A stretch of DNA of 64,000 bases from Tubulanus polymorphus (Eukaryota > Animalia > Nemertea): contig NC_134029.1 in assembly GCF_964204645.1 (NCBI RefSeq), positions 9,140,850 through 9,204,849 of the forward strand, written 5' to 3'. Below are positions 27,384 through 64,000 of this stretch, piece by piece; the stretch's first letter is position 1; each line of letters opens with the position of its first letter. The notes below the pieces were generated by a model. It saw only the letters and a list, made by a program, of their open reading frames with translations. It was not told where the DNA came from and made no database searches. The translations under genes and the position numbers were made by a program.

Positions 27384-27674
27384 TTTGATTAATCCTGTCA
27401 AATCATAATTCCTTGATAACAATTATTATTTAGCATCTTAAAATTATTTAGGAGGAGCTAATCCTTTCATATGCTCGTGGCTTTAGTTACTCGGTATGGT
27501 TTATTGCTAATAGTATGTGCTGTGATCACATATTTTCTACATCGTCAATTTTTCTTTGTTTTCATTGATTTTTTTGTGTATACATATGCGTACTTTGTTC
27601 ATAATGAGCGAAATTTATTATGTAACGGTGAGTGCCGTCGAAGTATTACTATCACGCTTCAATTCCACTAGCAG

Positions 27675-31089: not shown

Positions 31090-31450
31090 ATAATTTACAA
31101 AACTTAAAAACAAGAAAACAGAGATACACATAGAATAGAATAATAATAGAGATAACAGATATGTATACATGAATTTTACTTAAGTAGCTTGAGACCAGCA
31201 TTTACAAATCTAGCGAGTTTAATTAATATATTGTTATTTACAGCATTAAATAATTGTGACATTTTAAAAGTGTTTGGTCTATTTACATAAAAAGGTGTTA
31301 AGAAAACTCTTCGTATATTGTATAGTTTGGAACACTCAAAAAGAAAATGGAATTCATCACCGATTTTGTTAAGACTACAATATGTACAAATACGTTCGTT
31401 TCTATCAATATTTACATTGCTAAGTTTGTTTGCATCTAATTTACGGCTAT
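31090..31450 (-). mobile_element. 3' fragment of an RTE/RTE-X-type LINE (C-terminal CCHC knuckle), tail-to-tail with the intact LINE
   Basis: Minus strand reads NIDRNERICTYCSLNKIGDEFHFLFECSKLYNIRRVFL...LARFVNAGLKLLK* (stop 31178-31176). The C-x2-C...GDEFH-x4-C motif is typical of RTE-X ORF2 ends. Confidence 0.75.
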
Positions 31451-31506
31451 TGACTGATTACTAATGACGCTAACTAGCGGTCATAATTTGTACTATGTAT
31501 ATTATA

Positions 31507-32077
31507 TAAAAATTCCGTGCAATATACCATGCAAAAAATATATTGCTTCGTTTCTGCGTCCGCAAAAACGAAATTTACCGCGCAGAAACGAAGTTCGTTT
31601 CTGCGCCCGTTTTGGCGAGTTTGAGCGCGCGGTGATTTCTCGTTTTTGCGCCGCGCAAAACGAAGTCTGCGTGGCGCAAAAACGAAATTTACCGCGCAGA
31701 AACGCGCTAAAACGAGTGCAGAAACGAACTTCGTTTTTCGAACTTCGAACTTCGCCAGGGTTCATCTCGTGATACTAATTAAAACGAAGTTCGTTTCTGC
31801 GCTCGTTTTAGCACGTTTCTGCGCGGTAAATTTCGTTTTTACGCGGCGCAAAAACGGACGCAGAAACGAAGTTTGTTTTTGCGCGGCGCAAAAACGAGAA
31901 ATCACCGCGCTAAAACGCGCCAAAACGGGCGCTAAAACGAAGTTCGTTTCTGCGCTCGTTTTGGCGCGTTTCTGCGCGGTAAATTTTTTGCGCCACGCAG
32001 AAACGAAGCAATACATTTTTTGCATGGTATATTGCTCGGAATTTTTTTTTTAAACTTGGCCCTAATCAGCCACCATA
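31507..32077. mobile_element. Foldback MITE (long internal palindrome), related to the 45667-46200 family
   Basis: aattccgtgcaatataccatgcaaaaaat...cgtttctgcg is mirrored by cgcagaaacg...attttttgcatggtatattgctcggaatt. The right end ggccctaatcagccaccata resembles the TIR of 45667-46200. Confidence 0.75.
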
Positions 32078-33601: not shown

Positions 33602-36600
33602 TTAAATATCAGCACCTGCGTTGTCATAGATTTCGGTGAATTCCGGTAATGCAAACTCTTCCCGCCCGCCAGCAGACGGGGTCGCTTGTGAAATCCTTCT
33701 CGTCGACGGGGCGACGCTGATCATATCCGGTTCAATGCGTCGTCTGTGTTGCGTGTTGCTGCACAATATTACTAACAACAGTATGAAACAGCCCAGCGAT
33801 AACAATATCGCCCAAACGATCAAAGCTATGAACATATTTCTGTTGATAAACGTTGATTTATAATCAGATTGCGCCCCTAAAAGAAAACGATATATTCACT
33901 TACTCATCTGAAATCTATCGATAAACATTCGTTACTAAACCCAAGACTAACAACGATTAGTCTCGAAAACTAATCCAAAACCCCTTAGAGCGAAATGAAA
34001 TTGATAAGAAATTTCACAACGAAAGAAATCGGTCGCACGAGAATCGTTGTACAGGGACAACAGGATAAGAGACAATTTTGAGCCTGAGCTTTTTATCTTA
34101 CTCTTTCACGTGTCCAGATTATGGCGCGCCAAAGCGTCACAAATCCGAGATGTTATAAATTCATTTTCTGTTCAAGACGCCTTTCCGTTCTAGCATACCA
34201 TATGTAGATTAACTTACCTGTTGATGGTTTATTATTTTCGTCCTCGGATGGCGCGTAGCACGTCGACGTGCCTTCAAAATTCATACAAATCTCTGATGCT
34301 TTGCAACGACTTGGGGACTCGCATTCATCTATGTCTAAAAGAAAATAACGAAATCGCAATTTCATGAGTATTTACATTACTTACTAATATGTAGTATCTA
34401 TATAGTAAAACAAAAAGGAATAAGCCATTATTTGCATGTAAAAGCTTAGGGCAGGCATTTTGATTTTCATATTCTATTTCAGAGTGTTAAGCATTTCATT
34501 TCAAATGATTACCGGTGCATGTTTTATTGTTGTCGGATAACGTGAATCCCTTGCCACAACTGCATATCGGTCTACCTTCCGAGTGACCACACGTTCTCGT
34601 GCAACCGCCATTATACATGTTGCATTCGTTTACATCTACAAATGCACGTAAATGCAAAAATATACATTTCAAGTTCTGTTGCAGACTTCCCCGCAACCCC
34701 TTGCCGAGGAGAAAGCTTAATTGGCATTTACCTAAACAGGTTTTTCCGTCCTCTTGTAGTTTGTATCCGGGATTGCATTTACATTGAAACCAAGGAAACT
34801 GATCTATGCATAGATGGTCGCATCCTCCATTGTTGTTACCACATTTTGTCACTGAAAAATTTGAGAATTCGATCAGTGTATGTAAATCATGATTATTAAC
34901 TCAATCAAGTAATCTCGATATGATAAGTGCATCGAACAAACTGTTGTAATTTATCAAATAAACTAGAAATAAAAATAGATAAATGAATAAATATATAAAA
35001 CCTCTATACCTTTGAAAGCTCCAGGCGGCCCTTGTTGGCCAAACGGACCCGTAGCACCAGTAAATCCATCGTCACCTGGGGGCCCTTTGTCTCCACGTTT
35101 GCCTTGTGTACCGCGATTTCCCGTAACGCCTGCAAGACAATGATTGAATTATAGTTCATCGAAATGTTAGTGCAAAAACGTAACTAATCGGATTAAAAGT
35201 AAACCAGTTGGATAAACTAGGGAGTTTGTCGTACTTCCCTAAATACCACCAACTCTTATCTAAGCATGAGCTAGGAAATATAATTTTACCTTTTATTCCA
35301 GTAATACCCATTGGTCCAGCGTTTCCCGGTGGTCCGGGAATACCCCTCGAACCTGTGACTCCCTTTTTACCAACAGGTCCTTGGTTGCCTTGTTGGCCAT
35401 CTATACCCGGAGGTCCGATTGCACCCTGATCTCCGGTCTGTCCCTTCGGCCCTTTTATTCCTGCATCTCCTTGTTCACCTTTAACGCCAGAAGCACCCTA
35501 ATATATACAGGAAAAACAAATGACAATCAGTAAATGACGCATTGGCAATTGCACTGTCAGTAATCGAAATAAATGCTGAAGTTTCTGTCTGGATTACCTG
35601 TGCCCCCGTAGATCCACCGGGACCGTCCGGGCCAATACCTCCTTGTACACCGGAAGCTCCGGGCAATCCTTGGGCACCCGCATCTCCAGTTGCACCGGTT
35701 GCTCCGGGGCCACCAATAGGAGGCAGTACGTATTCAGAACCTAATGTACAAATCATATGATAATCAAAACCAAATTTTTTCACATTTCCCATCAATCTTT
35801 TTTTCTAGTATTTTTTTTTACTTTTTATTTGTATTCCCAATTTAACCAAAATATATTTCTCGCAGTCCACTTTCCTTTTTCTCGCATAGTTCAACTCCTT
35901 AATCGATTTTATTTCGTCATAAATTTAGTGTATGTTAAATCATCTTCCGTCCTGACTTTTTTTGTAAAACGTGAATGAAATCCGAAGAATGAAATCCGTT
36001 GAGTTCAAACTCACTTATATCGGCGTTTATCGGGTACAGTTTTGTGTAGGAGATGCCGGTCTCTTGTAAAACTTGACCTTCAGTGGGTACCTCTTCGTTT
36101 TTCAGATTACGTATCTCGATGACGTCCGAATTGGGCGGCGGGGGAATATTCAAATACTTGAAAGTAATGGGGTTGTCACCGATGGTTGTAAATCCAATAT
36201 AATCGCCAGTTTTCACAGTTATTTTGTTCGGCGGATAAACCTGAAAAACATGACCAGTATTCTACTAACTCACAAAAAAATAATGCATACTCACGACTGA
36301 TAATTATTCTGTGATACAATCAAGGTTGTAAACAGTATGTCACAAATGCAATTTCAAGCTCAATGTGATCTTCATCATGCATTCTACACGCTGTTTTGAA
36401 ATTAGAGATCCTTGCATAATTTACGACTGATCTCTCAAATATTTTGTAAATTTGCTGATGATTTCTCTGGGCAAGTGAAATTTTCAACGAATTCGACTTA
36501 TCTATCGCTGGGTAAATACCTATCAAAAACTGTTCACTTTTTTGCTACAGCAACATTTTCACGGGGTTAGTACATATCTTTTTATGTACTACGCTTGTTA

Positions 36601-39600
36601 GAAAACGTTTCGTACCCTGTATTCACGCGGCCCCGAGGGTGCAGAAAACGGCACTTCGCCGACCAGAGCGAAGTATTCGCCTTGTCCAACATTCACCGGG
36701 CGCCAGATTTGCAGATTTACCGACTCATTATTGGCTAGGTAAGCGTTGAATCTCTGTACGAATCCGTCGTTCGGTATCGGTTTTCCGCGTACAATGTAAG
36801 ACTGAATGATGCTTGGAGCTTCATTCGTTAACCTCGAGGATGTGTCCGGGTTTCCAACTCGCACGGTCGATAAAGTGGGTCGTTTCAAATATCGTGAACC
36901 TGAAAATACACGTATTTGAAATCGATGTGAAATGATATTTTTTACGATAAAAAATACCATATACGGCACAAGGAAAAAGCGTCACCCTCTCAACGCACCT
37001 ATTTCAACATTGGCTTGGAAGTCGGCATCCTTCACTAGTTTTCCAGTAGGAAAGACAGAGCCCCCGACTACCGGGTCGGCGCCGATCACGTCGACAGTCG
37101 TAATCTGAGAAACCGTTTGAAGCTTCGCAAAAATCGGGTTCCTGTCCGTTATCATGAATCCAAATTTGTCACCTTTCTTAACGGCTATTGCGGCACCTTC
37201 CGCTGGATATACCTTTTACGGAAAAGAAATAATCAATGAAAGTACCATTTACAGTAATTAAGTCATATACATTACCAGCGAGTCTCACATTCTTAGATTT
37301 CTAATTTACGCCAGTCAAAATACCGTTTATAAACAGTCTGCAAGTGAGGGACCAAACGTAGTTGGAAAAGCCCCTTACTTTGCAAAATCAGGCCACAAAG
37401 TCAATTGATACAATTTCAGGCCCGTACCCCTAAAATTTTCAAAGTGCCTGCCAAAACTGCAGTGTCAAAACATTTTGGTCAAGATTTTTCGAAATTTGGA
37501 TACAATTTCCATGTTTTTTTTTATTGAAAAGTAATCCATTCCCAGATGATCTATTCACGTACCGGAACACTTCATATCTTAAGATCTGTCCTTTTTCACG
37601 GCGAGAAGTTATGAGGTATATTGTTAATCTGAACCAAAAGCGACTGTACGACAACTGTGATTCACGCGGTATCACGAAACGTCTTGGATAGTTTCTTGCG
37701 ATGAAAAAGATACCAAAAGTTGGATGGAACTTTTCAAGATCATCATGTCACGACTTACCGTATATGAATCGGGCGGTTGTTCTCTGGAATTAGGCGTAAA
37801 TGGCTGCTCTGCGACTAGCTTATATTGATTTGGGTTCGTCGATTCCAGCCGATAAATTTGGAATTTCACAGTCTCGTTCAGATTCATGAAGCAGTTGAAT
37901 CGATACACGTAACCGTCGGGAAGGTCCGAGTCCTCGTATATGTATATCCGTTTGCCAGGTGCCGCAGTTTCGTAACCGCCGCTGCTGACTGGTCCGCTGG
38001 TATGGCCGTGCGTGGAAACTTTCAAAGAAAAATACAGTGAATATGAGAAAATGAAACCAATGAACTCAAACATACGAATAGAAAACAGCGCCGAAACTCG
38101 GGAGTGACATTAGACGCACTGCAATGAAAGTCATAGAATGAAAAATCAGCAAGATATCTTCAGATTTTAAATCTCATTTCAAAGAAGGCGTTCGAGCGCA
38201 AAATTCCTTTGGAATTAGAATATTTTGGGAAATTGTCTTTAAGAATTACGAATGTCAAGCCCCAAATTTTTTTCAAAGACAAAACTTGACGACGGTTATA
38301 ATATTACATCGCTCTCACGTCTCATTGTTGCAATTTTGAGAAATGAAGTCTGAGTTTCGGTAGTTTGAATCCAAGGACCGTCGAAAAATGATAAAACACG
38401 CATCACAAATAGTTTTTTAGAAAAGGGAAAAATGACCCAACACAAAAGTACCCGAATAAAAATGGTGGCTAGCAATCAAAATATTGCAGTCTAAGTTTTA
38501 CATACAGCCAATTATTCGACTCCATTCGAATCGTAAAAAGTAAAATCTTTTCCAGAGCCGTCGGAAAGAATTTTTCAGTGGCGAGGCTTATTTCTGAAGG
38601 GGGTCTGGGGGCCCTCCGCTAGAAAAATTTTGAAAATTCAATCGCCGGAGATGCGTTTTGGGGCCATTTCACGGTCTCATTCACAGAAGCATGAGAAGCC
38701 GTGAGCCAACCACCTAGTACAGAGAACGACGAGCTGCTACGCGGTACAGCGTGCTTTGAAAAATATTTTGTTAAGCAAAAAGTGGGGCGGCTTTGTCCGT
38801 CACTGTTTCCTGTTTTCAGAATGATAGTTCGATTGAGTTCATTTTTGTTCAGAACTGAGATGACGATATACTTCCCACATTATCACGTCAATATTCGATG
38901 AAGATATAGCATTTTTGGCCCATACCAGAAAATGTGTAACTTACTTGTTGTATTTGGTTCGGTTAAAGGCACATCCGCTGAAAATATCGAGAGCTCGTGA
39001 AAATATGTACGATGAATAAGCTGATACAAAATAAATACATTGTAGCAATAAATAAAATATAATTCGAATGCAAAAAGATGAGATGATTCGAAGGCAATAA
39101 TTCCTTCACTAATACGTACAGATATCGACTCGAACTGCGAAACGGTAACCATCCAGCCTATTGACCACTTCTACACTACTTCCGAGTTGAGGTCCGCCGG
39201 TCTTGGTATCTAACGTTTTCATTTTGCTTCCGCTATCGCTATCGTAACCGGGAACGTACACGACAGGATTTGAAGCAGTTCCTGACGAGAAAGCCAGCTT
39301 ATCCCCGGCTTTGATAGGAAAATTTAGAGTCGTGCCAGCTTTTACGTACGTATCGATGCTTCGCCTTTGTCTCCTTGGCTTGATACCGTATTTTGAATCG
39401 CCATATACCTATAGTTTTAAGATTCAAGCAACTGCCTTATTCTTTTTTAAATTCCGACTCAAAAACAATCCCTGACGGCCAAATATGTTCGCAACACAAA
39501 TAATTTAAGACTTAAAGGACGTTAGGACCAATTATGGGCTTTTGCCTGGTCTCATTTTGAAGCTTTCAATTATAAAGGTACCCATGGAAACCTAATATCT

Positions 39601-42600
39601 AAATTAATCAACTCATCTATGAACGATGGCATTTACTGATCAAGGAAGATACGTTTCGACTCCGTGTTACGCATATACGACAAACTGAATTACTACTGGT
39701 CAAGCGGAATAGTTCTATGGGTCTACTGGTGAGCGCGCTTACTTTCAACGTACTAGACCAGGGTTCGCTAGATTTGATCAGATGCAGTTCAAAGAAAGTG
39801 ATTAAGAACAATAATTTGTGGCAACTGTTTTGCGCTAATTTGAACCGTGATATTTATCCTAATTTTGACTTAAACTAATTATGCAGTTAATATTTACCAC
39901 GAAAGTGCCAGGAAACGGTGCTCTAAAGGGCTGGTCGAAGATCAACTCGTATTTGTTTTTATCGACGAGGTCAGGGCGATAGATCTGCAGACGTACTTCG
40001 TCTGATGTTTTCACCGTTGTTGTAAATCTATACAGGTACCCGGCCGGTAGATCAATGGAATCAAAGATATCCACGAAGAATCCAGTTTCTCCCTGTTTGG
40101 CCGCGGGGTCGTTCAGCGATATCGATGGATTTCCGGCCGAAGAAACTGCAAAAAGGAATTGATATCGAATATGTTAATTTTCAATATTCTCAGGGGGATA
40201 CGACGGGCCGTATACGGGTTATTGGTGGCTGATTCGGGCTATATCGAAAGAAATTCGTACCGTATAAGTTATACATTCTAGATGTAAAAATATTCACCTA
40301 GTGAGAAAGACAGAATCAAGAAATCGGCTACCATCCTCTTAATTTAAACGAATGTGTACTTACCTAAAACCGTTCCTTCAACAACGGGAACTTCCGGTAG
40401 AGTAACATTTGATCCACCAGGTGCTGAAGTAAATCATAGAAAAATTCCTATGCAGATTAAGACACCGAAAATACCTCGATGATATACTGTATGGGTGATT
40501 TTTCAAGGTTCCTTCTGCATTAACTGCCGAAATTCCATCATTGCTGTCATTTTTAAAGTAATAGAAGACGATAGTTACCTGCGACTAATATGGACGAAAG
40601 AGTGACCAATAACGAATATTTGAATGCGTTATTTTTCTCCTTGAATTTCATTTCAGTTTGTCCGATAGAAGTTCTGTCAGTAGGATTCGCGAATGTGAAA
40701 GTTAAAACCGGTGAGGTCTCCTGCCCAGGAAGCCCGTAGCTGGCTATGGGACTCTGCGTTCCGAGACTGGTAAAGCCAAGCATATCTCCATTTTCAACTG
40801 GCATTACTTTGTCGGCGTAAACCTACCGAAAAAATTAATATTTTTCAAATTTAATCGGAAACCTAAAAAATGATGGTGTATTTCGCATTTATCTTTCATA
40901 TAATCGCTTTATTATTTCATTCTTATCTTTAAAAACTTACGGTAACGACGCCTGTAATTTGTGGTGTATACGTCATCTCATTAAGAAGTGTCAAGTTTGT
41001 GCCGTTCGGGCGCCATATCTGAAATGCTACCGGCACACCTTTCGTGACGTAGGCATTGAAAGCGAGTAGATACCCGCCTGTCAGGTTCGAATTCTTCAGT
41101 ACGACCGTCTTATAGCCATCTCCGAACACTCCCTGCAATAGCTGATTTCCGCCTCCCGAAACTAAAGAGACGTTTGAGATACATTCGATTAACATTTCCA
41201 ATGTGAAGCCTAGTCAGTCTCAGCGCATCTTACAATTCTGAGTCTAATAAAATCGGAAAGGAAATAAAAACTCCGGATGCGATAGTTACCTGTTGTGAAT
41301 ATCGGCGACATTGTAATCGAAAGGGAATATTTGAATGCATTGTTTTTTTCCTTGAATTTCATTCCAGTTTGTCCGACAGCAATTCTGTCAGTTGCATTCG
41401 TGAATGCGAAAGTTAAGACCGGCGAGGTCTCCTGTCCAGGTAGCCCGTAGCCGGCTATGGGACTCTGCGTTCCGAGACTTGTGAAACCAAGCATATCTCC
41501 ACTTTCAACTGGCATTTCTTTGTCGGTGTAAACCTACAGAAAAAAATCAAATACTTATTAGATTCAATCGGGAACCTAAAAAGTGATTGCATATTTCGCA
41601 TCTAAGTTGTTCGCGTCATTTCTATCTTTCAGAACTTACATTAACAACGCCTGTAATTTGTGGTGTATACAACATCTCATTAACAAGTGTAAAGTTTGTG
41701 CCGTTCGGGCGCCATATCTGAAAAGCTACCGGCACACCTTTCATGACGTAGGCATTGAAAGCGAGTAAATACCCGCCGGTCAGGTTCGAATTCTTCAGTA
41801 TGACCGTCGTATAACCGTCTCCGAACACTCCCTGCAATAGTTGATTTCCAGTGGCCGACGCTAACGGAATGTTTGAAAAAAATGATTAAAATCTTTCGCA
41901 CCAAGCGTATAATCAGTTTCTGCACTACATACAATATTAACTTCAATAGAATGATAGAAGATCCCACACAAACTCGCGATACGATAATTACCTGATGTGA
42001 ATATCGGTGACTGTGTAATCGAAAGGGAATATTTGAACGCGTTGTTTTTCTCCTTGAATCTCAATTCGGTTTGTCCAACAACAGTTCTGTCAGCAGGATT
42101 CGGGAATGTGAAAGTTAAGACTGGTGAGGTCTCCTGTCCAGGAAGGCCGTAGCTGGCTATGGGACTCTGCGTTCCGAGACTGGTAAAACCAAGCATGTCT
42201 CCACTTTCAACTGGCATTTCTTTGTCGGCGTAAACCTACATAAAAGAATCAAATACGGTACTTATTCCATCGGAAACCTAAAACGTGATGGCGTATTCGC
42301 ATCTAGTTGTTCGTTTCATTTGTGTTTCACAACTTACGGTAACGACGCCTGTAATTTGTGGTTTATACGTCATCTCATTAACGAGTGTGAAGTGTGTACC
42401 GTTCGGGCGCCATATCTGAAACGCTACCGGCACACCTTTCGTGACGTAGGCGTTGAAAGCGAGTAAATATCCGCCGGTCAGGTTCGAATTCTTCAGTATG
42501 ACCGTCTTATAACCGTCTTCGAAAACCTCCTGAGATAGTGGATTTCCATTGGCTGACACTAATGGAAAATTTGGAAATAAAATTTTTGTTAAAAATTCAT

Positions 42601-45600
42601 CACGCGAAGACCTTTGTCACTTTTAACAAAATAATAAATTTACCTTCTATGAACATTGAAGACATTGTAGCCGAAAGAGAATATTTGAATGCGTTGTTTT
42701 TCCCTTTCAATCTCAATTCAGTTTGTCCGACAGCAGTTCGGTCGGTCGTATTTGTGAATGCAAAGGTTAAAACCGGTGAGGTTTCCTGTCCAGGGAGTCC
42801 ATAGCTGGCTATGGTACTCTGCGTTCCGAGACTTGTGAAACCAAGCATATCTCCACTTTCAACTGGCATTTCTTTGTCGGCGTAAGCCTTTAAGAAAGTG
42901 AAATGGAAGGCGTATTTGATTCCATCAGGAAGTTACATTATCCTGAGCCAGGTTTCACAAACACTTCGTCGGTTTAATTTCTTCATTAGTTCAGTGTACA
43001 TGTGTATGCTGCTTAAGTCGACTAAAAATGTTATTCCCTTTTGTGAAACCCGACATACGGCTTTGAATTTCATTGTATAGTTTTAAATGCAAAAAGTGAT
43101 GACGTCATTTCTTTTCATAAGTTGATGGTTTAAAACTTACGGTAACGACACCTGTGATTTGTGGTGTATACGTCATCTCATCAACAAGTGCAAAGTTTGT
43201 GCCGTTCGGGCGCCATATCTGAAACGCTACCGGCACACCTTTCGTGACGTAGGCATTGAAAGCGAGTAAATATCCGCCGGTCAGGTTCGAATTCTTCAGT
43301 ACGACTGTCTTGTAGCCGTCGCCGAAAATGCCCATCAATAGGTGATTTCCGTTGGCCGACACTAAGAAAATGTTTGGAAAAAATATGTAAAAATTCTATA
43401 GTCTGTTTCATTGCTTTACACAATTTTGAGTCTCGTGTAATAACAAATAATCGTCTATCGCTAGAAATATCGATTGAGCTCTTGGAAGTTTTCTGATAAA
43501 TTGTACCTTCATGTCCGAACATTATGCGGCATTCAATTATGTAACGTGATTACTTACTACTGGCTACTGTCTACGAATTACTTTATAAGTTCTGTTCGTT
43601 TATTTTCAAATCGATTCGAAATTTGTGAACGACAAGACCAGGTTACAGAAACATTCGTACTATACTTACATATAGGTGCAGGCTGTGTTGGTACCGGGGA
43701 TGTAGCTGTTACCGGAGCTGTCTGTGTTGAACTCGCTGAAGTCAGAAAAATATTATATTCATCAATTCATTCATTCGTTAATTCATTGATTAAATATTTC
43801 ATTCATTCATTCATTTGATTTGATAAATGTTATTGTTTTAAACCGGGTTCAGGGAACACATTTTTGTTGATTCCAAACATTTGCCGTCTCAAACACAGAC
43901 CACTTACCTTTAGTAGTGATGGGAGAAGAAATCGGCGTTGTTACAATATTGGTTGTCGTGGCTACAAGATGTATTACGAATGAATAGAATGAGCTATCAT
44001 AAACTAATGTACATTGTATCATAACGTGGAGAGAATAACCTCACAAATCTTTTTCCATAATTATACAGATGATTGTTATATGTTATGGACTCTGTGTTTT
44101 AAAATGAATGTATTTCTTTCGCTTGGCATAATTCAACATGAATAAACGATTAATACTCACGGCAAGGTGGATCTTTGTAATCTGGGCCTGCAAAGTAGAT
44201 AGTGATAGTAGCGTATCAGGTAGTGATAATGGTAGTAATGATGTAAGTTCTGATGATCATGGTAATAAAAGATAAAAGAAGTGATGCGGCAGATGGTAAC
44301 AGTTGTGGTTGGGGTAGAATGGGGCGATGGCAGTGGCAATGAAGGTAGTACGAGTGGTAGTGCTATCACAAAAATTAGAATGAACCGGAACCGAAATTTC
44401 CAATTATGTACTTCGATTTACACAGAACACGCTGTAAACTCAACCGTCGATATCACCAAAGCACTTCGACTTTCGATTTCAAAATCAACCCCCACTTTTA
44501 CCTCCCGACAGGTGTGCACGTGGGTTTCTTACTGACACCAAATCAAACGAAATCTACCAACTGAATAAATAAAAGGGTCAATCCCTATCATTGATAAGAT
44601 TTAAAAAGATTGAATGGTAGAAGCACCGTGGTTATAGTGACTACAGGAATTGGTAGGGCAGAGGTAGGGGATTAGGTTATGGGTAAGCGGATTGGAACAA
44701 TATAGACGAGTAAATACACTGTGTGATCGTGATAATGTGAGTGGCCAACGGGATTCATGGCGAGCCTTTCAGCTTTTCAATTCACATGGATAGACACTTA
44801 CACAATTCAGGATGCGGTGCAATGTCTACGGACAGAGACAACTTATAGGTCAGGGCACTGGTCGAGATGCTAACGATCTCGTTCAATTTTGCCATGTCCT
44901 CAGCTTTATCAAATTGACGGAACACTGTCGTTTGCGGTTCGATTCGAATTGCGTATGATCCATTTCCGAGACTGGAGCCACCCAAGTGTTCACCACCTTC
45001 TAGTTTGATAGGATTTGACCAATCCATTTTGATCTATAACAGGAATTCAAACAGAGAGGGCTCGTTTAGATTCAAATACATGGTGGAAAACGGTTATCTG
45101 TAAAAAGGCGACACCTACAGTATGCTCCCCAGGAGTTTCAAACTGAAACGGTACATCAGCTATAAGTTTGTAGCTATATTGCGTCTTAGTTGGTCTGTAG
45201 ATCTGGGCTTTGGCTGCGTAGTTGGTCTTAGAGTACACATTCATCCGACAGACGTAACCAGCCGGTAGAGATTCGCTTATTATTACCATTGAAAAATACC
45301 CTGCCGTCACCGTATCACCTGACTGGACGACGGGATTACCAAATGTTTGAACTAGAAATGATGAATGGTAATATATAAATCGACAAAATTAATGGAAATA
45401 ATTCTCGCATATGTAACGGTGACTTGAATCAAACACGTGTCAGAAAATATATCATAGAATCTAAGATTGTATTCCCCTCAGACCGATGACTGTAAATATC
45501 ATTTCACCATTAACACTTGGTCATCAGTTTCTTGGGATAAACATTTTATTATATCAACTCTGTTTTCATTAATTTATCAGGTCTACATTGTTCGTTACAT

Positions 45601-48600
45601 TCTCCTTAGATTGCTTATCTTATCCATTTCCTTTCACTTGAACTATTGCAGACATGCGCAAAAATATGGTGGCTGATAAGGGCCATAGCGTAAAATTCCT
45701 GGTATGTAAATGAGGGCGCCAGAACGCAAAAAACGAAAAAAAAACGTCCAATTTTCTCTGAAAATTCGTTTTGGCGCCAAAACAAAGAATATTTAGTTTT
45801 GGCGGGAACTTTCATTTTGGCACCCCCGCAAAAACAACGAAAAACGTCGAAATTTCTCTAAAAATCAGTTTTGGCGCACCAAAACAAAGAAAATTACGAA
45901 CTTTCATTTTGGCGCCCCCGCCAAAACGAACTTTCAACCACGTAAAATAATTCTATATATGCAAATTACACACAGGATCAACGCACCAAATTGAAAAATA
46001 ATTTTATGGGGTTGGATGCTTGTTTTGGCGGGGGCGCCAAAACGGAAATAACCGCGCCAATACGAAATATTTTTGTTTTGGCGCGCCAAAACGAACTTTC
46101 AGTGAAAATTTGACGTTTTTTTTTTTCGTTTTGGCGTTCTGGCGTTCTGGCGCCCTCATTTACATACCATTTTTTACGCTATGGCCCTTATCAGCCACCA
46201 TACAAAAAGGATGGCATGGATTGAATTGCTGAGAGATTATGTGAACAAATGTTAAAAAGGACGGAAAGAAAAGAACAAATTTTTAGGGGAAAAAACAGTC
46301 CATTCTAGATCATGCATAATGAATGAATTTTGGATTTAAAACGATGATTGTTACTCATTTTTTTACCTTTGCCATTGGATGGAATCGGGTCGGTTGACAC
46401 GGGACAGAAACCGGGGACTATCGGCCTTGTGACGCGAGGAGGCTGAGTGGTCGATGATGCTGGACTACTAACGACCGCGGGTGTAATAGTGGATGTAATG
46501 GCAGGCGAAGTTCGTACCGGTGTTGTCGGAGGTTGTGTGGTTGGTGGTTGTGTCGGTCCTTAAAAAGGAACATGATCAAGACGGTCGAATAAATCAATTG
46601 TGTAAAAGATATGAGAAATAGACTTCATTTGTGCAGCGTGTTTTACCCGGGGTTGTGGTGCAGACCGGAGCGGTTGGCACGACAAAGTTGGAACCTGAAA
46701 TGATAAGTCAACAACTACTGAGTTTCGTATTTTGGTAAAAGGAATGATAACCAGAGGCTTTTGCCATCATTTTTTTAAGTGGCGATCTTTCATCATATAG
46801 ATTGTAGAGGCTATCTGACTACTAGCATTGCGTGATACAAGCTACAAAATGCAGTGAAGTTGGCATTTTACTATGATTTCTTACTGAGAGTTACTTGCAC
46901 GTGGCAGCCAATATGCGGCGCTGTGTCGTCACACGAATAACCTCTATATACATGTAGTGTTCAAATTGAAAATTAAAACTTACAAACGGTCGGATGAGAA
47001 GCTACCTCAGCCTTTATCATATATTTATAGATAAGTGCACTCGTGGAAATTGTATAGATTTCCCCGACTTGAGGAAATCGAGATGGTTTATTCGTTTGTT
47101 GACGAGTATATGTGCTGTATTGTCCTGATGCATCGGGCTGCCAAGCGATACTTGTTATGCCGTCTTTATTATAGAATCCAATCTTGTCACCGTCTGCGAT
47201 TTCTATTGGGTTGTTATTCCAATCAACATCTACCTAATAAGGAACGTATCTTATCCGACAAAGATGTTACAAAATAAAACGCAATCTACCAAGATCGAGG
47301 ATGACCTAAAGATTCGGATCTATCCTGATTGCGATACTTACGGTATATGGTCCGGCAGACTTGGCTGTGAAATCTATATTACCGACGAGAAGCCATGGCA
47401 AATTCTCCGAGTCCTGATTTGGAGGAGCTCGCCATATTTGCAAAGATACTGCGCCTGGTTTCGAGATCCATATCTTAAAGTTGCAGAGCCATCCCTTGCT
47501 CAGGTTTATAGTATACAATATAGTGAAAATGTAGCCGTCTGTTGCGCCAATTCCTTCAACGATGTCGGCTCCATACGATGTGACTGAAAACAATATTTCA
47601 ATGAAAGTAAACCTTCGGCAGAAGAGTTGAGGTACCCGGTAGATGAATAACCATAAAAGCATTCAACTGCGTAAATAGGTTTGTTTATAACGAACGTTTT
47701 CAGGAACCTTCCCCTCGTTAGGTACATAGTCGTACCTGATGTAACTGTACTTGTACCTAATGAGGGGAAGTGTTCCCGAAACATTCGTTATAGATAAAAT
47801 TTTGAAAATGAGATCTTATTGTGTTTACGCTTATATGGTTATTCAAATAGTTCAATCAGTCCAGCTAGACTATGCCCACTGGAAAAGAGTCTGAAATGCT
47901 CAACAATCTGACACTTTCAAAATTCCATACCACGTGAACATATACCGAAACCTTAAAACTCACTGAAATCATAGAATGTCATGAGCTATAACTTTGCAAT
48001 TGAATTGGGTACAAAATATCCATAGATCCCAATATAGATGGAAATACGACGTAATTCCACCATCCAACGCCCCCTGGTGAATGTATGCAGAAACAAGGGA
48101 CCTCGAAAATCAGCACAATCATATAAAGCATCATATCTACAATTATGCTAGCGATTGTGATTACAAAATATGTATAGGGGCCAATATAAATTGAAAGATT
48201 TAATACTTTTCTATATTCAACTCCCCCTGGTGGTGAGAACGATACTCTGGGTGACCAGTATTCCATGTGAGGAGATGTGTCCTGTGACAGATATCAAGAC
48301 TATAAGTTAAAACATAATGATATATTTTCCTCAAAAACCATTCTCCAGATATGAGCGATAACTGATGGAACTAAGATGGCTGCTGGTTGCATCAAAATCG
48401 ACTAATCGACTAAACCCGTCTGATATGTAAAACTCTAATTTCAATGTAACATGATAAACCATGTAGAAGCTAGAGGCCTAAGAATTCAGACCTAAAATCA
48501 CCTTTTTGAACAAAAACGACACAATACAGCCATCTTGTTTCTCGATCGACCCAATTTTTCCTGTGATACTAAGCCCTAGGGATACATATTCGCATGCAAA

Positions 48601-51600
48601 ACCTAAGAAAATAGAAAATAAAAACGCTCAAAATTGCTGAGATTTTGCCGAGCAAAATATTCGGCTTGATTCAAATTGCGCCAGTATTGGACTGTAGAGT
48701 CGGTTAGGGTAGATATACAAATTAACCAAATATCAAGACCATACATAAAAGCGTATTGAAAACTTCCCAAGAAAACTGTATTCCGTCTTTCTGTCTACAA
48801 ACAGACAGACGGACGGACGACGGACAAGTATAGGACATAAGTCCCAAGTGGGCTAAAAAGATTGGCAGAGAATATGACAAAGAAATAAACAATGAATTTG
48901 ATTGGATGAGCAGGTTATAGTCGTAATTTTACTCGATATTTCTCTAATTGATAATTTCTTATCATTATAACGCGTACCGTTTGCTCCGGTAGGAGTGGAT
49001 TCCAAAAATATCGAGTCGACGGTTCCACACCTCTTCGGTCCAATTGTTGTAGCTGCACACGGTGGAACATAACTTGAACCTTTTATTTAAACAAAATAAA
49101 TTTAGACACAGGTATGCATGCATACGTGGTTTTTTTCAAAGCCACTTAATTGTTGTAAACTTGTTCCACAAAATTCATGAAATGTTTTTACAGCTGAACT
49201 TACATTTTTGCGGATAGTTTGCAATGACGATGGAAACCGAAAATCTATAAGTAGCTATGGATTTCTCAATGGATATAGTTTGCCCTGTGGTCGGTAACTG
49301 TCCCGACAGTTCCGTGTAGAATGTGCGGGCGTTGGTGTCAGGGGAAAATCCAACGGATCCCGTATTCGGCATCATTATTCCGATGTATTCTCCGCCTTTC
49401 AGTTTTATTGGGTTGTTCCAGTCTGTTACTGAAATCTAATTCAAACCAGAAAATATGAGTGCATGGGTAATACTCCAGGAAGTAAACTGCTTAAATGCTT
49501 GATAATCTTTATTATACATCTAAACTGAAATCTTGATTAACATTTCAGGATCAAAGCACCAAAATGCCGATTAGCAATTACCTCGTGTTCTCCTACGCTG
49601 GGTGCAGTGAATTCAAGATCTTGAATCAGCATCCTCGAGGTAGTCAATTGATTGTTGCCGGTATTTTTCCAAATCTGGAAATGTGCCGAGACGTTTTTGA
49701 CCGCCATATACGCGCTAAAACTGCACACGTAGCCCTCGGGTAGTGGGTAAGAAGCTAGCACATAAATGAAAGAACCGCTCTGAGAAGGGTTTCCTTTCAC
49801 GACTGGATTGCCATGTGTGGACACTGAAATATCATTGACATTTATCAAAAAGTCATTTTCCATTTGTCAGTGTATGCGATGCCAACAATGATCTTTTTGT
49901 CATACCTTTGGCATCCACGGGAATGGAAGGCGACGAACACGTAGATGCGGTGGATGAACTACTTGGATCGGTTCCTTGCGGTGCAGTACTGGCAGGGGAT
50001 GTTAACTGAGTTGGTTTCACTGTGCTGCTGGCTACATTTGGAATTTTGGTTGTACTAGCCGCCGATGGGGTTGAAGGTAAAGCTGTGCTGGTAAGTATCG
50101 TTGTGGGTGCCATTGCAGTAGTAGCCGGAGGTGCTGCACTGGTCATCGGTGTTGTTGAAAAGGTTGGCGCAGGTGAAGTAGCTGAAAGAACAGGGAATGA
50201 ATTTACGTCACTGAAAATAGGATCGAAGCTTTTTAGTCAACAAATTGCCAAACGAAAGAACCAATTTGCATCAATATGCATTCAATTGAAAATTCTCAAC
50301 GGATTTTTATCATGCTTAGCAAAATATGTAACTTCGTTATCGATGCCGAATACTCACGACAAGGGGGATCCACATAGCCTTTGCCTAAAATAAATGAAAT
50401 TAATAAAATGATCTAAATTGGAAAACAAACTTGGTAAAATGTGTTATCCATCCATATCTACTTACAAAGTTTAGGGTGTGGTGCAATATTGACCGAAACT
50501 GAAAACATGTAAACTAATGTAGAAGTCGATACGGCAACGTTTTGTCCCACTTGTGGTAGACTTGTTGAAAATGTATACTCTCTATAGTAACTAGGTTGGA
50601 AGGATGGTGCATAAGCAACTGAGCCAGACTTTAAACTTGTCAAACCTAAATATTCACTACCGCTTAATTTGATCGGATTGCTCCAATCTACCGGAACCTT
50701 GAATATAAAATGAAACAGCCCCGATAAGTAAAGCTAAAAGACATCTTTTTCGTTTACAGAATGATAGAGAGAAACCAGTGAGTATAAATTCGAATGGTAG
50801 TTTATCATGTTTAAAATCTTGAACTTACCTCATGAACACCGGGTGTTTCAAACTTAAATTCTCTCTCTGCGAGTAAATTCCAAGTAGGTACTGCGCCTTT
50901 GAATATTTGAATTCTTGCCACGTGATTATTCTTGGTGTATACATTGAAATAACACACGTACCCAGCCGGAAGTGGTAAAGATGTTAACACGTAAGTAAAA
51001 TAGCCATCGTTTACTAGACTGTTTGCATCGACAACCGGATTTCCAACATCTTTGGCTGGAAATGAACATTTAAATTGTTTAAGCTAAAGAAAATAAACCT
51101 AAAAAAGAAAATAAACTAAAAACGAATGAGCTATATTACCTGATTTGTTAGGTGGAACGGGTTCTGTTGAAACTGGACATGTTTTGCCGTTAGCTGGGGT
51201 CGTGTTAATTGTAGAATCTGTTTGAGTTGAAGGGTTGGAAGTAGTGGTAGCTGGTTGAATTGAAGGTTGCTCTGTGCTCGCTGTTCTTGATGTAGTGGCA
51301 GCCGGTTGACTTGAAGGTTGTGCTGTACTCGCCGATTGTGTGGAAGGTTGTGTTGGACTCGCCGGTGTGGAAGGTTGTGTTGTACTTCGTGGCTGTTCAG
51401 ATGAAGCTGGTTGTGTTGTGCTAACTTGCGTTAGAAGAGTTGGCGCAGCTGTGGTCGTTGCTGAAATGGAATGTAATGGAAGAAAGCGGTGATGAATATT
51501 TCAGTTCTGTGTGTAGGTTGACAGTAACTTGCTTTGGCGCACTAGACGGCTCAACACGGGTTTTCAAAGAGGTTTTTTTCTTAGAAAATATCAACCACAA

Positions 51601-54600
51601 TGATAGATTTTGATCAGACAAAAATAACATAATTGTACAAAACGACCTGAAACGAATTAATACTCACGACACGGAGGATCGACGTAGCCTTTACCTAAAA
51701 CAAATAAAACCAGTTAGAATAGATAAAGAAACTTCGCAATATCACAATATCAACCCATATTTACTTACAAAGTTTAGGATGCGGAGCAATATTGACAGAA
51801 ACTGAAAACATGTAAACTAATGTAGTAGTCGATACGGCAACGTTTTTTCCCACTTGTGGTAGACTTGTTGAAAATGTATACTCTCTATAGTAACTAGGTT
51901 GGAAAAATGGTGCATAGGCAACTGAGCCAGATTTTAAACTTGTCAAACCTAAATATTCACCACCGCTTAATTTGATCGGATTGCTCCAATCTACCGGAAC
52001 CTTGAATGTAAAATGAAACAGCCCCGTTAAATAAAGCTAATAATAGAAATCGTTTTCGTCTACAGAATTATGGAGAGAAACCAGTGACTATAAATTCGAA
52101 TGGTAGTTAATCATTTCAAAATTTTGAACTTACCTCATGAACACCGGGTGTTTCGAAACTAAATTCTCTCTCTGCGAGTAAATTCCAAGTAGGTACTGCG
52201 CCTTTGAATATTTGAATTCTCGCCACGTGATTATTTTTGGTGTATACATTGAAATAACACACGTATCCAGCCGGAAGTGGTAAAGATGTCAACACGTAAG
52301 TAAAATAGCCATCGTTTGCTAGACTGTTTGCATCGACAACCGGATTCCCAACATCTTTGGCTGGAAATGAAAATGTAAAGAACAGAAGATTTCAATATTC
52401 AATGCCACATGAAGAACATATTGATAAGGCAATGAACTTAAAACTCACCACAGTTATAGAACATGTCTCTAGCTACAATTATGCAATTGATTGTGGTTAC
52501 AAAATGTGCACCAATACAATATGAAAATACTAAGTGATTCAGCTATTTAACACTCTCTAGTGACCATATACAAAAACCAATGACCTTGAAACTCATCACA
52601 ATCATGGAATATGGCACAAGCTACAATTTTGCAATTCATTGTGGCTACAAAATATTCCTGGGTACAAATACAATATGAAGATAGGAATTTATTCGGCTAT
52701 ATAGCACCCCCTGGTGACCATATGAGAAAAACCAATGACCTGAAAACTCTTCACCATCATAGAACATGTTACGAGCTACAATTCTGCAATTGATTTTGGT
52801 TACAAAATATCCATAGGTATCCATGTAAATAGGAAAACTGTATATAATTCAATATTCAAATCCCTGGTGGCGGGAACGAAAACCTGGTTAACCCCAATAT
52901 CGCGCGACGAGATGAATACTTCGAGAGTGATACTATCTATCAAATATCAAAACTATAAGTCAAAACCTGTCGATATTTTCTACAAAATACCTTTTTCTAT
53001 CTACAAATGACGACTGATGAAACTAAGATGGCTGCTGATTGTGCCTCGCTTGGCTGATCAAAGAATCTGTCTGATATATTTAAGAGCCGTTCTCAAAGTA
53101 TAAGCAGCAAGAATTTCAAGGAAACCAAACCATTTGAGAGCTACAGGTGTCGGAATTCAGCTGGCCGGTTCCCCAGTTGAGACTTAGGTCCAAAAATGGT
53201 CTTAAATCTTAAGACTGGTCTTAAGTTGTTAGATCGGCTATAGAACTTAGATGGTCTAAAATTGGTCTTAAGTCTAAGCTATGATAATGGAACTGGGCCC
53301 GGGCAAAAATGACTTTTTGGGCACAAGAAAGGCACACGATTGCCATCTTATGTCCGATCGACCCAATTTTTCTCATGCTAATGCATCATGGGGGAGGGTT
53401 ACAAACACATGTGGAAGATCAAGATAATTGATCAAAGCGATTTCAAAATTGTCCCTTGAAAACTACACAAATGTGTAAAAAGTGCTGATTTTGGTGGACA
53501 AGAAATGGCTGCCAGTCGGCCATCTTGATTCTGATCGGGCCAGTTTCCGTGAAGAAGATGTAGCTAGGTTAGATGCATGTATAAACCAAAGATCAAGACA
53601 ATACATTGAAGCGTCTTCAAACTCCCCAAAATAGCTGCATTCCGTCTACGGACAGGCGGACGGACGGACGGACGAACAGACGGACGAAAAGTGAACCCAA
53701 TAGCTTGCTGGGAGTCGCAAGTGGGCTAAAAAGAATGTAGCTATTTTACCTGATTTGTTAGGTGGAACGGGTTCTGTGGAAACTGGACATGTATTGGAGT
53801 TGCCGTTAGCTGGGGCAGTGGAAATTGAAGAATCTGTTTGAGTTGAAAGTTTGGAAGTAGTGGTAGCAGGTTGACTTGAAGGTTGTGCTGTACTCGCTGG
53901 TTTTGCAGTAGTGACAGCCAATTGACTTGAAGGTTGTACTGTACTCGCTGGTTTTGCAGTAGTGACAGCCGATTGACTTGAAGGTTGTGCTGTACTCGCT
54001 GTTTTTGTAGTAGTGACGGCTGGTTGACTTGACGGTTGCGCTGTGCTCGCTGGTTTTGTGGTAGTTTCAACCGGTTGACTTGACGGTTGTGCTGTACTCG
54101 CCGATTGTGTGGAAGGTTGTGTTGTACTTCGTGGCTGTTCAGATGAAGCTGGTTGTGTTGTGCTCACTTGCGTTAGAAGAGTTGGCGCAGCTGTGGTTGT
54201 TGCTGAAATGAATGGTAATGGAAGAAAGCGGTGATGAATATTTCAGTTCTGTGTGTTGGCTGACAGCAACTTGACGGCTCAACACGGGTTTTGAAAAATT
54301 TTTTGTCAAATGTCAACCACCATAATAAATTTTGAAACCGACAAGAATAACATAATTGTACAAAAAGACCTGAAACGAATTAGTGTTTGATACTCACGAC
54401 ACGGAGGATCGACGTAGCCTTTACCTAAAACAAATAAAACCAGTTAGAATAGAAAAGGAAACTTCGCAAAATCGCAATATTAAACCATATCTACTTACAA
54501 AGTTTAGGGTGTGGTGCAATATTGACAGAAACTGAAAACATGTAAACTAATGTAGTAGTCGATACGGCAACGTTTTGTCCCACTTGTGGTAGACTTGATA

Positions 54601-55436
54601 AACGTGTATATTCTCTATAGTAACTAGGTTGGAAGAATGGTGCATAGGCAACTGAGCCAGACTTGAAACTTGTCAAACCTAAATATTCACCACCGCTTAA
54701 TTTGATCGGATTGCTCCAATCTACCGGAACCTTGAATATAAAATGAAACAGCCCCGAAAAATAAAACTAAAAGACATCGTTTACAGAATTATGGAGAGAA
54801 ACCAGTGAGTATAAATTCGAATGGTAGTTTATCATGTTTAAAATTTTGAACTTACCTCATGAACACCGGGTGTTTCGAACTTAAATTCTCTCTCTGCGAG
54901 TAAATTCCAAGTAGGAACTGCGCCTTTGAATATTTGAATTCTTGCCACGTGATTATTTTTGGTGTATACGTTGAAATAACACACGTATCCAGCCGGAAGT
55001 GGTAATGATGTCAACACGTAAGTAAAATAGCCTTCGTTTACTAGACTGTTTGCATCGACAACCGGATTCCCAACATCTTTGGCTGCAAGTACAAATAACG
55101 AGTTTAATTTTAGGGAATGTGCTCTTGATTATACCCGTACATTATGGTAACTACAGAATGTACGCTTAAAATCCGAAAATGAGTAAGCTGACGATGTTAC
55201 TTTACCTGATGTGTTTGGTGGAACAGGGTCTGTAGTAACGGGACACGTTTCAGTTCCTGTAATTGTTAATACCGAAAATTCAATTATCATTTTATTCATA
55301 CGTACAGATGCAGATCGATGATTTTGATTTGAATTATATGATATTTCCAATTACCGTTTGCAAATGCATTCAAAAACGTGATCAACAGTAAAGTGCGTAT
55401 AAAAAGACTATAGCACCGCGAAAAACGAGTTGCCAT
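33602..55436 (-). CDS. Uncharacterised giant type I membrane protein (~3,046 aa, 49 exons): signal peptide, 13 repeats of an unassigned ~150-aa domain with mucin-like linkers, 49-triplet collagen, EGF x2 + truncated EGF, TM, cytoplasmic tail
   Basis: Frame-consistent GT-AG exons (minus): 55436-55355, 55256-55206, 55082-54856, 54730-54499, 54424-54398, 54202-53750, 52360-52134, 52000-51769, 51694-51668, 51460-51140, 51055-50829, 50697-50466, 50384-50358, 50181-49906, 49823-49582, 49435-49204, 49079-48978, 47583-47342, 47233-46984, 46694-46647, 46558-46367, 45351-45119, 45033-44802, 44187-44161, 43961-43908, 43735-43670, 43361-43141, 42887-42644, 42558-42338, 42235-41992, 41860-41640, 41533-41290, 41161-40941, 40822-40579, 40423-40364, 40145-39898, 39408-39120, 38977-38945, 38018-37759, 37212-36999, 36899-36616, 36240-36015, 35740-35598, 35497-35290, 35129-35010, 34851-34732, 34635-34513, 34334-34218, 33876-33602. 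Total 9141 nt, a multiple of 3. Signal peptide MATRFSRCYSLFIRTLLLITFLNAFANG; TM MFIALIVWAILLSLGCFILLLVILC. Confidence 0.85.
34218..34851 (-). CDS. EGF-like exons of the giant gene (two complete, third has only four Cys)
   Basis: KCGNNNGGCDHLCIDQFPWFQCKCNPGYKLQEDGKTC; DVNECNMYNGGCTRTC...CSCGKGFTLSDNNKTC; DIDECESPSRCKASEICMNFEGTSTCYAP. Confidence 0.92.
35010..35740 (-). CDS. Collagen triple-helix exons of the giant gene (13+23+13 = 49 uninterrupted Gly-X-Y)
   Basis: GGP GAT GAT GDA...GAQ | GAS GVK GEQ...GIK | GVT GNR...GPP GAF, counted codon by codon. Confidence 0.92.
40579..43361 (-). repeat. Four tandem ~700-bp two-exon units (domains 7-10 of the giant gene)
   Basis: Exon pairs of 221 + 244 nt repeated four times with near-identical peptides (GGYLLAFNAYVTKGVPVAFQIWRPNGT; MPVESGDMLGFTSLGTQSPIA). 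Confidence 0.95.
45667..46200. mobile_element. TA-flanked MITE with long TIRs
   Basis: ta|tggtggctgataagggccatagcgtaaaa...ggtatgtaaatgagggcgccagaacgc is mirrored by ...ttttacgctatggcccttatcagccacca|ta. Confidence 0.85.
47644..47846. mobile_element. Small foldback/MITE remnant
   Basis: tgaataaccata...ataacgaacgttt..ggaac.cttcccctcgttaggtaca is mirrored by tgtacctaatgaggggaagtgttccc.aaacattcgttat...tatggttattca. Confidence 0.65.
47860..48859 (-). mobile_element. HINE/DINE-1-like element (same family as 7086-8370)
   Basis: Ends gacggacggacg...gtcccaagtgggctaaaaa (reverse of the family head) and begins atgcccactggaa (reverse of the 3' subTIR). Internal ccccctggtg repeats. Confidence 0.75.
52385..53732 (-). 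mobile_element. HINE/DINE-1-like element inserted in one intron of the triplicated unit
   Basis: Reverse complement of the 7086 family: (gacg)n and caagtgggctaaaaa at 53650-53732; ~154-bp units at ~52420-52870. Confidence 0.8.
53163..53299. mobile_element. Small MITE nested in the HINE
   Basis: ggccggttcc ... ggaactgggcc termini with internal gtcttaag repeats. Absent at the homologous position of the 7086-8370 copy. Confidence 0.65.
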
Positions 55437-63869: not shown

Positions 63870-64000
63870 CTGAAAGATGAGTGAAAATCTGAACGGTTAA
63901 AATGATAATCATTGACATTCAGACACTCCGAAATTGCTTTCTTTTGTTAGTATGTTGGGATCTATTTTCTGATATCATTCTCGTTTTTTTTCAAATTCAT

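Follow-up and report, generated by a model that had tools for sequence, protein, structure and literature searches.

A giant predicted type I membrane collagen carrying thirteen jelly-roll-like repeats in the nemertean Tubulanus polymorphus

A 64,000-nucleotide stretch of the genome of the nemertean Tubulanus polymorphus (contig NC_134029.1, positions 9,140,850 to 9,204,849; hereafter the window, in whose coordinates all positions are given) carries on its minus strand a gene for a giant membrane collagen, which we rebuilt from six-frame open stretches and splice-site candidates. The model consists of 49 exons running from an ATG at 55436 to a stop codon at 33602; GT-AG borders flank 48 of its 48 introns, and the coding sequence of 9,141 nucleotides (nt) yields 3,046 amino acids (aa) with no internal stop, in agreement with a previous sequence-only reading that had joined 49 exons without frameshift into a protein of about 3,046 aa. 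The encoded chain comprises, in order, a signal peptide, 13 repeats (D1 to D13), 49 Gly-X-Y triplets, three EGF modules, one transmembrane helix and a short tail. The order and phase of the exons, the 13 repeats under purifying selection, the collagen, the EGF modules, the transmembrane helix and the splicing from repeat 13 to this helix are established. In the following list of its parts, RNA joints are splice joints in contigs of one public sequencing run, X4.

55355..55436, minus strand: exon 1, with the start codon and a predicted signal peptide of 27 aa; no RNA joint
50358..55256, minus strand: exons 2-13, repeats D1-D3 of the Cys type with Ser/Thr/Pro-rich linkers between them; one RNA joint (intron 10)
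44802..50181, minus strand: exons 14-23, linker and repeats D4-D6 of the Cys type; equal to RefSeq LOC141906211; RNA joints at introns 15, 16 and 22
43670..44187, minus strand: exons 24-26, three small phase-1 linker exons between the two RefSeq models; reading frame and splice signals unbroken, without an RNA joint
40579..43361, minus strand: exons 27-34, Cys-free repeats D7-D10 arranged head to tail; introns 27, 28 and 30 with RNA joints
39120..40423, minus strand: exons 35-37, a short linker plus repeat D11, whose loop insert contains the furin-type site RRQRR; same insert position in repeat 4 of a Lineus protein
36015..38977, minus strand: exons 38-42, membrane-proximal repeats D12 and D13; RNA joints at introns 37, 38, 41 and 42
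35010..35740, minus strand: exons 43-45, collagen stalk of 49 Gly-X-Y triplets; RNA contig 24 of run X4
34218..34851, minus strand: exons 46-48, three EGF/cbEGF modules (Pfam) and juxtamembrane linker; RNA joints at introns 46-48
33602..33876, minus strand: coding part of exon 49, transmembrane helix and cytoplasmic tail of about 50 aa; RNA contig into the 3' untranslated region

Exon 1 is the best hydrophobic ATG-to-phase-1-donor exon among 16 candidates between 56000 and 43362. A 27-nt Cys exon follows each of D1, D2 and D3, and exon 24 is an in-frame copy of these exons (5, 9 and 13); D12 and D13 are Cys-free except for one unpaired Cys in D12. At the 3' end, the RNA contig extends past the stop codon into the untranslated region as far as 33379, and AATAAA signals lie at 33317 and 33282. 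An upstream 5' exon is suggested by two splice signals on the same strand, a strong donor (55650) and an acceptor (55446) located ten bases ahead of the ATG.

Four public runs cover the locus, none of which is recorded as RNA; X4 acts as spliced RNA by its joints, and runs X1-X3 contain no splice joints. Spliced X4 contigs match 16 of the 48 predicted introns exactly (12 and 9 joints in two sets, 16 distinct), introns 34 and 35 agree with two loose contig ends, and the length of a contig implies intron 45; the joint at intron 10 may derive from a near-identical copy. One 1,702-nt contig spans repeat 13, the collagen, the EGF modules, the transmembrane helix and the 3' untranslated region, and the core architecture is therefore present in one transcript. 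Where X4 coverage has gaps (exons 1-13, 17-21 and 23-26), this was counted neither way, and six other X4 joints and one X1 joint were set aside because they are located in intronic repeats.

RefSeq splits the locus into two models, LOC141906211 and LOC141906210. The former corresponds to aa 812-1472 of our model, with 661 of 661 residues identical, and the latter to aa 1521-3046 except for one residue, the exon choices agreeing over 1,525 residues; 16 of the 48 introns (1-9, 11-13 and 23-26) are supported by no RNA joint and by no RefSeq model. The locus could accordingly be read as two or three genes or transcripts, namely a secreted mucin-like protein with repeats 1-6 and a membrane collagen with repeats 7-13, and the separate RefSeq models, the absence of a joint across introns 23-26 among the X4 joints and an AATAAA in intron 26 at 43604 are in keeping with this. 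We nevertheless consider such a split quite unlikely. Neither RefSeq model has a signal peptide, and LOC141906211 starts within exon 14 and terminates after running past a canonical donor, whereas exon 1 heads the signal-peptide candidates; exon 24, located between the two models, continues the series of Cys exons in frame; the single AATAAA is at chance level, since about 1.4 are expected in that gap; and two relatives, the Lineus longissimus orthologue LOC135483968 and the Tubulanus paralogue LOC141905155, hold Cys-type repeats and stalk in single models. For these reasons all 49 exons probably encode one chain, a model that would correct the split annotation.

The 13 repeats are 154-180 aa long, and each is encoded by a pair of exons of phase 1/0 and 0/1. 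A six-frame profile scan of the window found exactly 26 half-repeat exons and no further copies, and a profile built without Tubulanus rows gave all 13 repeats 55-87 bits, compared with a maximum of 6.1 for shuffled sequences (260 made, 249 scored); the count of 13 copies first read from the sequence is thus confirmed. The motifs that had been proposed as shared by all copies fared unevenly: G[YFW][VL]xx[FM] is present in 13 of 13 repeats and G[NH] in 12, but [LF]QI[WYF]R[PA] and L[VI]x[ED]xxF occur in 7 each, G[DE]x[LIF]G[FL] in 9 and Yx[FY]S[VL]xV in 3, the looser form QI[WYF][RK] being found in 13 of 13. Similarly, the Thr/Ser/Pro-rich linkers that had been described are found between repeats 1-7 only (33-159 aa, 39-58% Ser, Thr or Pro), whereas repeats 7-10 and 12-13 abut directly.

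Repeats D1-D3 are mutually 95-96% identical, with a ratio of nonsynonymous to synonymous substitution rates (dN/dS) of 0.15-0.28 between copies, and D7-D10 are 80-83% identical with dN/dS of 0.23-0.31; across repeat pairs, dN/dS was 0.15-0.31 in 9 of 9. Assembly duplication of repeats 1-3 was rejected on the basis of dS of 0.10-0.14 and introns that are 73-95% identical, and the possibility of pseudo-exons was rejected by the same dN/dS range. Judged from these comparisons, repeats 1-3 and 7-10 are recent duplications under purifying selection. In a domain tree, the Tubulanus repeats form a moderately supported group (94/80), in which D11-D12 was flagged as a long-branch join, and the repeats of Owenia (100/100) and Haliotis (98/92) likewise pair within species; this within-species grouping indicates that the repeats of Tubulanus, Owenia and Haliotis multiplied independently. 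A strand Cys accompanies the C-terminal Cys in 12 of the 12 domains having the latter, all of them nemertean, and both are absent in 26 of the 40 domains examined. This co-occurrence in the sequences suggests a disulfide, and in repeats 1-6 the strand Cys likely pairs with the C-terminal Cys.

Sequence searches did not place the repeat in a characterised family, as had been proposed at the outset. In Pfam, 18 half-repeat exons searched at E <= 1 and two database records (P0001 and P0002) searched at E <= 10 gave no match to Lectin_like (the family of the Cwp84 domain), PHR or DUF4082, and these three were also absent among the families listed for 38 relatives at E <= 0.001 (best five per protein). 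Half-repeat profiles had no match to PDB sequences at E <= 10, the whole-domain alignment returned only collagen and a few weak low-complexity or transmembrane matches among the best 60 of 87, and no credible family for the repeat was found in NCBIfam.

Structure prediction was more informative. AlphaFold2 modelled D13 (34 sequences) as an all-beta domain of ten strands (pLDDT 81, pTM 0.82), whose best match among 48,161 solved chains was Cwp84's lectin-like domain (PF18560, PDB 4ci7; Z 12.2, root-mean-square deviation 2.8, 140 residues aligned). Next came the cyanophage A4 capsid protein (Z 11.2), the Bxb1 tail tip (10.9) and the PBCV-1 capsid protein (10.3), then the phi812 baseplate (9.6) and two esterase N-terminal modules (8.0-9.1), and below these PHR domains (PF08005; 7.0-7.6), F-type lectins (7.2-7.3) and CBM32 (about 6-7). 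With a model of a Lineus repeat, the same seven chains came up within the top eight rows (Z 6.8-9.8), including the Cwp84 domain (Z 8.6, deviation 3.3, 137 aligned). Identity between the repeat and the Cwp84, PHR, DUF4082 and phage jelly rolls is 5-14%. The named neighbours of the repeat in the Atlas, which serve as leads only, were Lectin_like (0.87), PHR (0.86) and DUF4082 (PF13313; 0.85, below the lead mark of 0.9), and no chain named DUF4082 appeared among the listed fold matches. The best 30 Atlas clusters lack a Pfam family, and the three listed, all eukaryotic and including members from sponges and annelids, have a score of 0.94; an Atlas search with a whole single-repeat family member gave no usable match. 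At E <= 0.001 the repeat fold was matched by seven predicted viral proteins, including one collagen-repeat protein of a phage. A three-repeat relative (P0012) matches PHROG 1858, a phage tail fibre family, at E 8.8e-12, and this sequence link agrees with the structural matches to phage tail domains.

On the strength of these models, each repeat is very probably a ten-strand jelly-roll sandwich, and the beta-sandwich that had been guessed from the sequence is matched by a predicted topology of the Cwp84 lectin-like, or galactose-binding-domain-like, type. In its predicted form the repeat belongs with the galactose-binding-domain-like jelly rolls, as an animal branch of them that has no name. 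It differs from the Cwp84 lectin-like, PHR, DUF4082 and phage domains in being extracellular, animal and tandem, and in having low identity and no Pfam matches to these families. The fold by itself does not show the function of the repeat.

The collagen stalk (aa 2688-2834) is a single run of 49 uninterrupted Gly-X-Y triplets. It contains RGD once, at aa 2807, which we rejected as a conserved integrin site because it is present in only 3 of 22 family members and absent in Lineus. The EGF exons match FXa_inhibition, cEGF and EGF_CA in Pfam. One strong transmembrane helix lies at about aa 2970-2995, and together with the signal peptide at aa 1-27 this single C-terminal helix upholds the type I topology assigned to the protein at first reading; the last cysteines (2985 and 2994) fall within the helix, which carries a W-x4-[ST] signature shared by the family, and the tail contains ALPEFTEIYD. 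On the basis of collagen chemistry, the 49 triplets of three chains can be expected with high confidence to form a wound rod that stands on the EGF modules and measures about 43 nm, the length following from the rise per residue of collagen. Since a C-terminal non-collagenous (NC) domain is absent, the membrane anchor with its conserved W-x4-S/T face is a candidate site of chain registration, to which we give an even chance. The arrangement raises a folding question, namely what nucleates a triple helix without a C-terminal NC domain.

The architecture, which had been treated as one of a kind, is not restricted to this protein. A profile search of 1.84 billion representatives gave 118 matches, and two further searches added eight and three new proteins; 53 database proteins of at least 200 aa were classified, two RefSeq fragments of the focal gene being left out. 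Repeat, collagen and transmembrane helix occur together in 24 of the 53, with 1-6 repeats and, in six cases, EGF modules; four have a repeat and a transmembrane helix without scored collagen, 18 have repeats with neither, and seven, among which were a Hydra immunoglobulin (Ig) protein and an isoform of it, scored below 30 bits to the full-domain profile and were discarded as false or Ig-like matches. The 24 records come from annelids, molluscs, brachiopods and nemerteans, and W-x4-[ST] is present in the transmembrane helix of all 25 such sequences when the focal model is counted, a set that includes isoforms and close relatives. Members include the paralogue LOC141905155 (four repeats), in which Cys-type repeats are joined to collagen, EGF and transmembrane parts, the Lineus longissimus orthologue LOC135483968 (six repeats), proteins of Owenia (four) and Haliotis (two), Lingula LOC106169885 (two repeats, 49 triplets, EGF and transmembrane helix), and single-repeat proteins of Lamellibrachia, Paralvinella and Intoshia, small single-repeat members having about 450 aa; all named members are annotated as uncharacterized.

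Proteins without collagen have the domain too: it is present in five tandem copies in a protein of the hemichordate Glandiceps, after astacin, ApeC, CUB and kringle modules in an astacin-ApeC-CUB-kringle-CTLD protein of the mollusc Babylonia and in a similar unnamed protein, after SUEL and ShK modules in another protein, and in at least six copies in a secreted-looking protein of the paramyxean parasite Paramarteilia canceri, a protist. Of the members found of this spiralian family of type I membrane collagens, which has no name, the focal protein is the largest. We found no description of this family or its records in the literature covered, from which subscription journals were mostly absent. 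The family spans at least four spiralian phyla and defines a nameable extracellular domain that has no Pfam entry, and its small single-repeat members make the questions of ligand and trimerisation easy to address.

About 2.8 kb upstream of the focal gene, and on the same strand, we predict a shorter relative that lacks the repeats:

58275..60460, minus strand: headless paralogue, 6 exons, 396 aa; five GT-AG introns and an open frame, a prediction only

The predicted protein has a signal peptide, 49 Gly-X-Y triplets in one exon, three EGF modules, a transmembrane helix with the family signature and a Tyr-rich tail, and it is 39% identical to the C-terminal part of the focal protein over 332 aligned positions; the repeat domain is absent. 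The shared stalk and anchor indicate a chassis that exists as a module with and without heads. An Ig-like exon at 63525-63896 was rejected as the head of this paralogue, as it ends in a stop and the signal-peptide exon lies at 60400-60460; this exon (minus strand), terminal-looking and of the Ig I-set (Pfam E 7e-6), is probably the end of the next upstream gene. Heterotrimers of the focal chain with its headless neighbour would carry one or two giant arms per stalk, and the identical number of triplets and EGF modules, the common helix signature and the adjacent position on one strand would suit such a pairing, as would the precedent of C1q, whose heterotrimer chains are encoded by clustered genes. 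Common descent explains the equal length as well, however, since the Lineus and Lingula relatives also have 49 triplets, and the distance from the end of the collagen to the transmembrane Trp is 151 aa in the neighbour versus 142 aa in the focal chain; we regard heterotrimerisation as very unlikely.

The loop insert of D11 contains RRQRR, with RQRR at aa 2256, about 430 aa N-terminal to the collagen. The Lineus orthologue provides an informative comparison. In one model with an incomplete N-terminus, it has three Cys-type repeats followed by three Cys-free ones, and it also has 49 triplets, three EGF modules, a near-identical start of the transmembrane helix and the ALPEFTEIYD tail. Its Cys-free repeats group with D11-D13 (98/96) and its repeat 4 with D11 (95/83), and this repeat carries a basic insert, RRRRR, at the position of RRQRR in D11. 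The R-x-[RK]-R site is unique within each of the two proteins. In the model of Lineus repeat 4 (pLDDT 70), the insert is a lower-confidence coil between two strands, and neither half of D11 contains a cysteine. We think it rather likely that furin cuts this exposed basic loop, that the halves stay interlocked without a disulfide and that force or proteolysis could then shed repeats 1-10; the joints of SEA domains and of the Notch heterodimer behave similarly.

Collagen stalks that present globular modules for avidity are also found in the defence collagens (C1q, collectins and ficolins) and in class A scavenger receptors. Collagen-stalked immune lectins carry their heads at the C-terminus, and in the focal protein this polarity is reversed, with the heads N-terminal to the collagen and the anchor C-terminal. 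Pfam found no C1q, CTLD, fibrinogen or SRCR domain in the focal exons or in P0001 and P0002, and only EGF modules follow the collagen. By domain content the protein belongs neither to the defence collagens nor to the class A scavenger receptors, but it likely works like one of them with the polarity turned round. The streptococcal proteins Scl1 and Scl2, with an N-terminal head, a collagen stalk and a C-terminal LPXTG cell anchor, share the polarity of the focal protein but are bacterial and have an unrelated head; the matches to NCBIfam models (51-84 bits, versus cut-offs of 325-500) derive from the collagen alone. In the nemertean Lineus ruber, the collagen-bearing immune proteins described in the available text of PMC9835746 are C1q-like (nemertean C1qL).

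Among membrane collagens, the MACIT collagens XIII, XXIII and XXV and C. elegans COL-99 are type II proteins whose helices are interrupted, which have a juxtamembrane coiled coil and whose whole ectodomain is shed by furin, according to the accessible part of PMC4678570. The focal protein resembles them as a single-pass membrane collagen, presumably trimeric, with a furin-type consensus in the ectodomain; it differs in that it is type I, its helix is unbroken, most of the chain is non-collagenous and the furin-type site lies inside a folded repeat far from the collagen. All three features by which the same source, as far as available, delimits MACITs are thus lacking, namely type II topology, an interrupted helix and a C-terminal ectodomain motif of two cysteines, the focal C-terminus being a cytoplasmic tail. 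The focal family therefore reverses both the type II topology described for membrane collagens in that part of PMC4678570 and the C-terminal heads of collagen-stalked lectins. In Lingula, 17 EGF-domain collagen genes, with several more in oysters, are described as lineage-specific shell-matrix collagens in PMC4595640, whose available text and supplement do not mention a membrane anchor or head domain. The focal protein likewise has collagen followed by EGF/cbEGF modules in one chain, with one RNA contig spanning both, but its host has no shell. The focal family suggests that the supposedly lineage-specific combination is older and partly membrane-bound.

We tentatively propose, at a little under an even chance, that the protein is a trimeric type I membrane collagen with jelly-roll arms, serving as a glycan-avid adhesion or recognition receptor that is nicked by furin in repeat 11. 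Three chains would form the collagen rod of about 43 nm on three EGF modules, registered at the membrane, and the modules of each chain, spaced by O-glycosylated linkers, would make up one arm. With as many as 39 modules a trimer would gain avidity and reach, and the variable loops of the modules may, with nearly even probability, recognise microbial, mucus or matrix sugars. After a furin cut in D11, its halves would hold together and the outer ten repeats would become sheddable at a breakable joint. Possibly, although we lean somewhat against it, binding is linked to signalling or uptake through the conserved tyrosine of the tail.

Several observations weigh against this proposal. A possibly glycan- or microbe-binding beta-sandwich array on a trimeric stalk had already been suggested in the sequence-only reading, of which prediction upholds the beta-sandwich, with carbohydrate-binding modules nearby in fold; but a sugar-binding site was not identified in the repeat, whose conserved positions are core strand and turn residues, and Foldseek found no match in the PDB at E <= 0.001. 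The Cwp84 domain itself, in which Leu339, Glu448, Lys460 and Asn487 form a calcium site, is a putative sugar binder without a shown ligand, and the usual site seems to be absent, according to the available portion of PMC4089489. The sequences that share the helix signature are not independent, of the 22 family members checked, only the two nemertean orthologues had a furin-type site within a repeat of the ectodomain, the database profile searches yielded no protein record covering repeats 1-3, and no RNA bridging introns 23-26 or most of the 5' third was found among the X4 joints, RefSeq calling two genes.

The same protein might instead be a structural glycocalyx component or a cell-matrix tether, with repeats that bind proteins, homophilically or in the matrix, or that only provide spacing. 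PHR, IFT25, XRCC1 and the cement proteins of phages use the same fold to bind proteins (PMC4089489, available portion), the mucin-like linkers and the collagen rod suit a spacer, the repeat surface lacks a visible conserved sugar site, and the Lingula EGF-collagens are matrix proteins as described in PMC4595640. Other invertebrate proteins, on the other hand, combine the domain with ApeC, C-type lectin, SUEL lectin and astacin modules, and the tail tyrosine motif has been kept between Tubulanus and Lineus, which a pure spacer would not need. We consider a tether or spacer rather unlikely, and return to the glycan-avid receptor as the reading that we favour. In its most extended and speculative form, which we judge unlikely as a whole, the family would constitute a spiralian receptor class of membrane-registered type I collagens, with accordion-like arrays of glycan-binding jelly rolls akin to phage tail domains, a furin-split release joint, signalling through the tail Tyr, and a valency tuned by the headless chain.

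The rest of the window contains the following features.

~11400-25100, plus strand: exons with weak Tudor (E 0.007) and BRCT (E 0.003) matches and Ser/Thr-rich stretches, presumably a gene resembling the 53BP1 type
18750-19727, minus strand: single 326-aa open reading frame (ORF), by eye a rhodopsin-type peptide G-protein-coupled receptor, antisense within the span of the Tudor/BRCT gene; no Pfam match at E <= 1
26748-30608, plus strand: element of the long interspersed nuclear element type, with a 979-aa ORF containing endonuclease and reverse transcriptase, preceded by a 211-aa ORF
~31450-32050 and ~45650-46210: long palindromic inserts, by eye resembling miniature inverted-repeat transposable elements, with mirrored ORFs
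~38550-38780 and 44378-44420: high-copy intronic repeats, with X1 bin depths of 8,750 and 2,850, respectively, versus about 40

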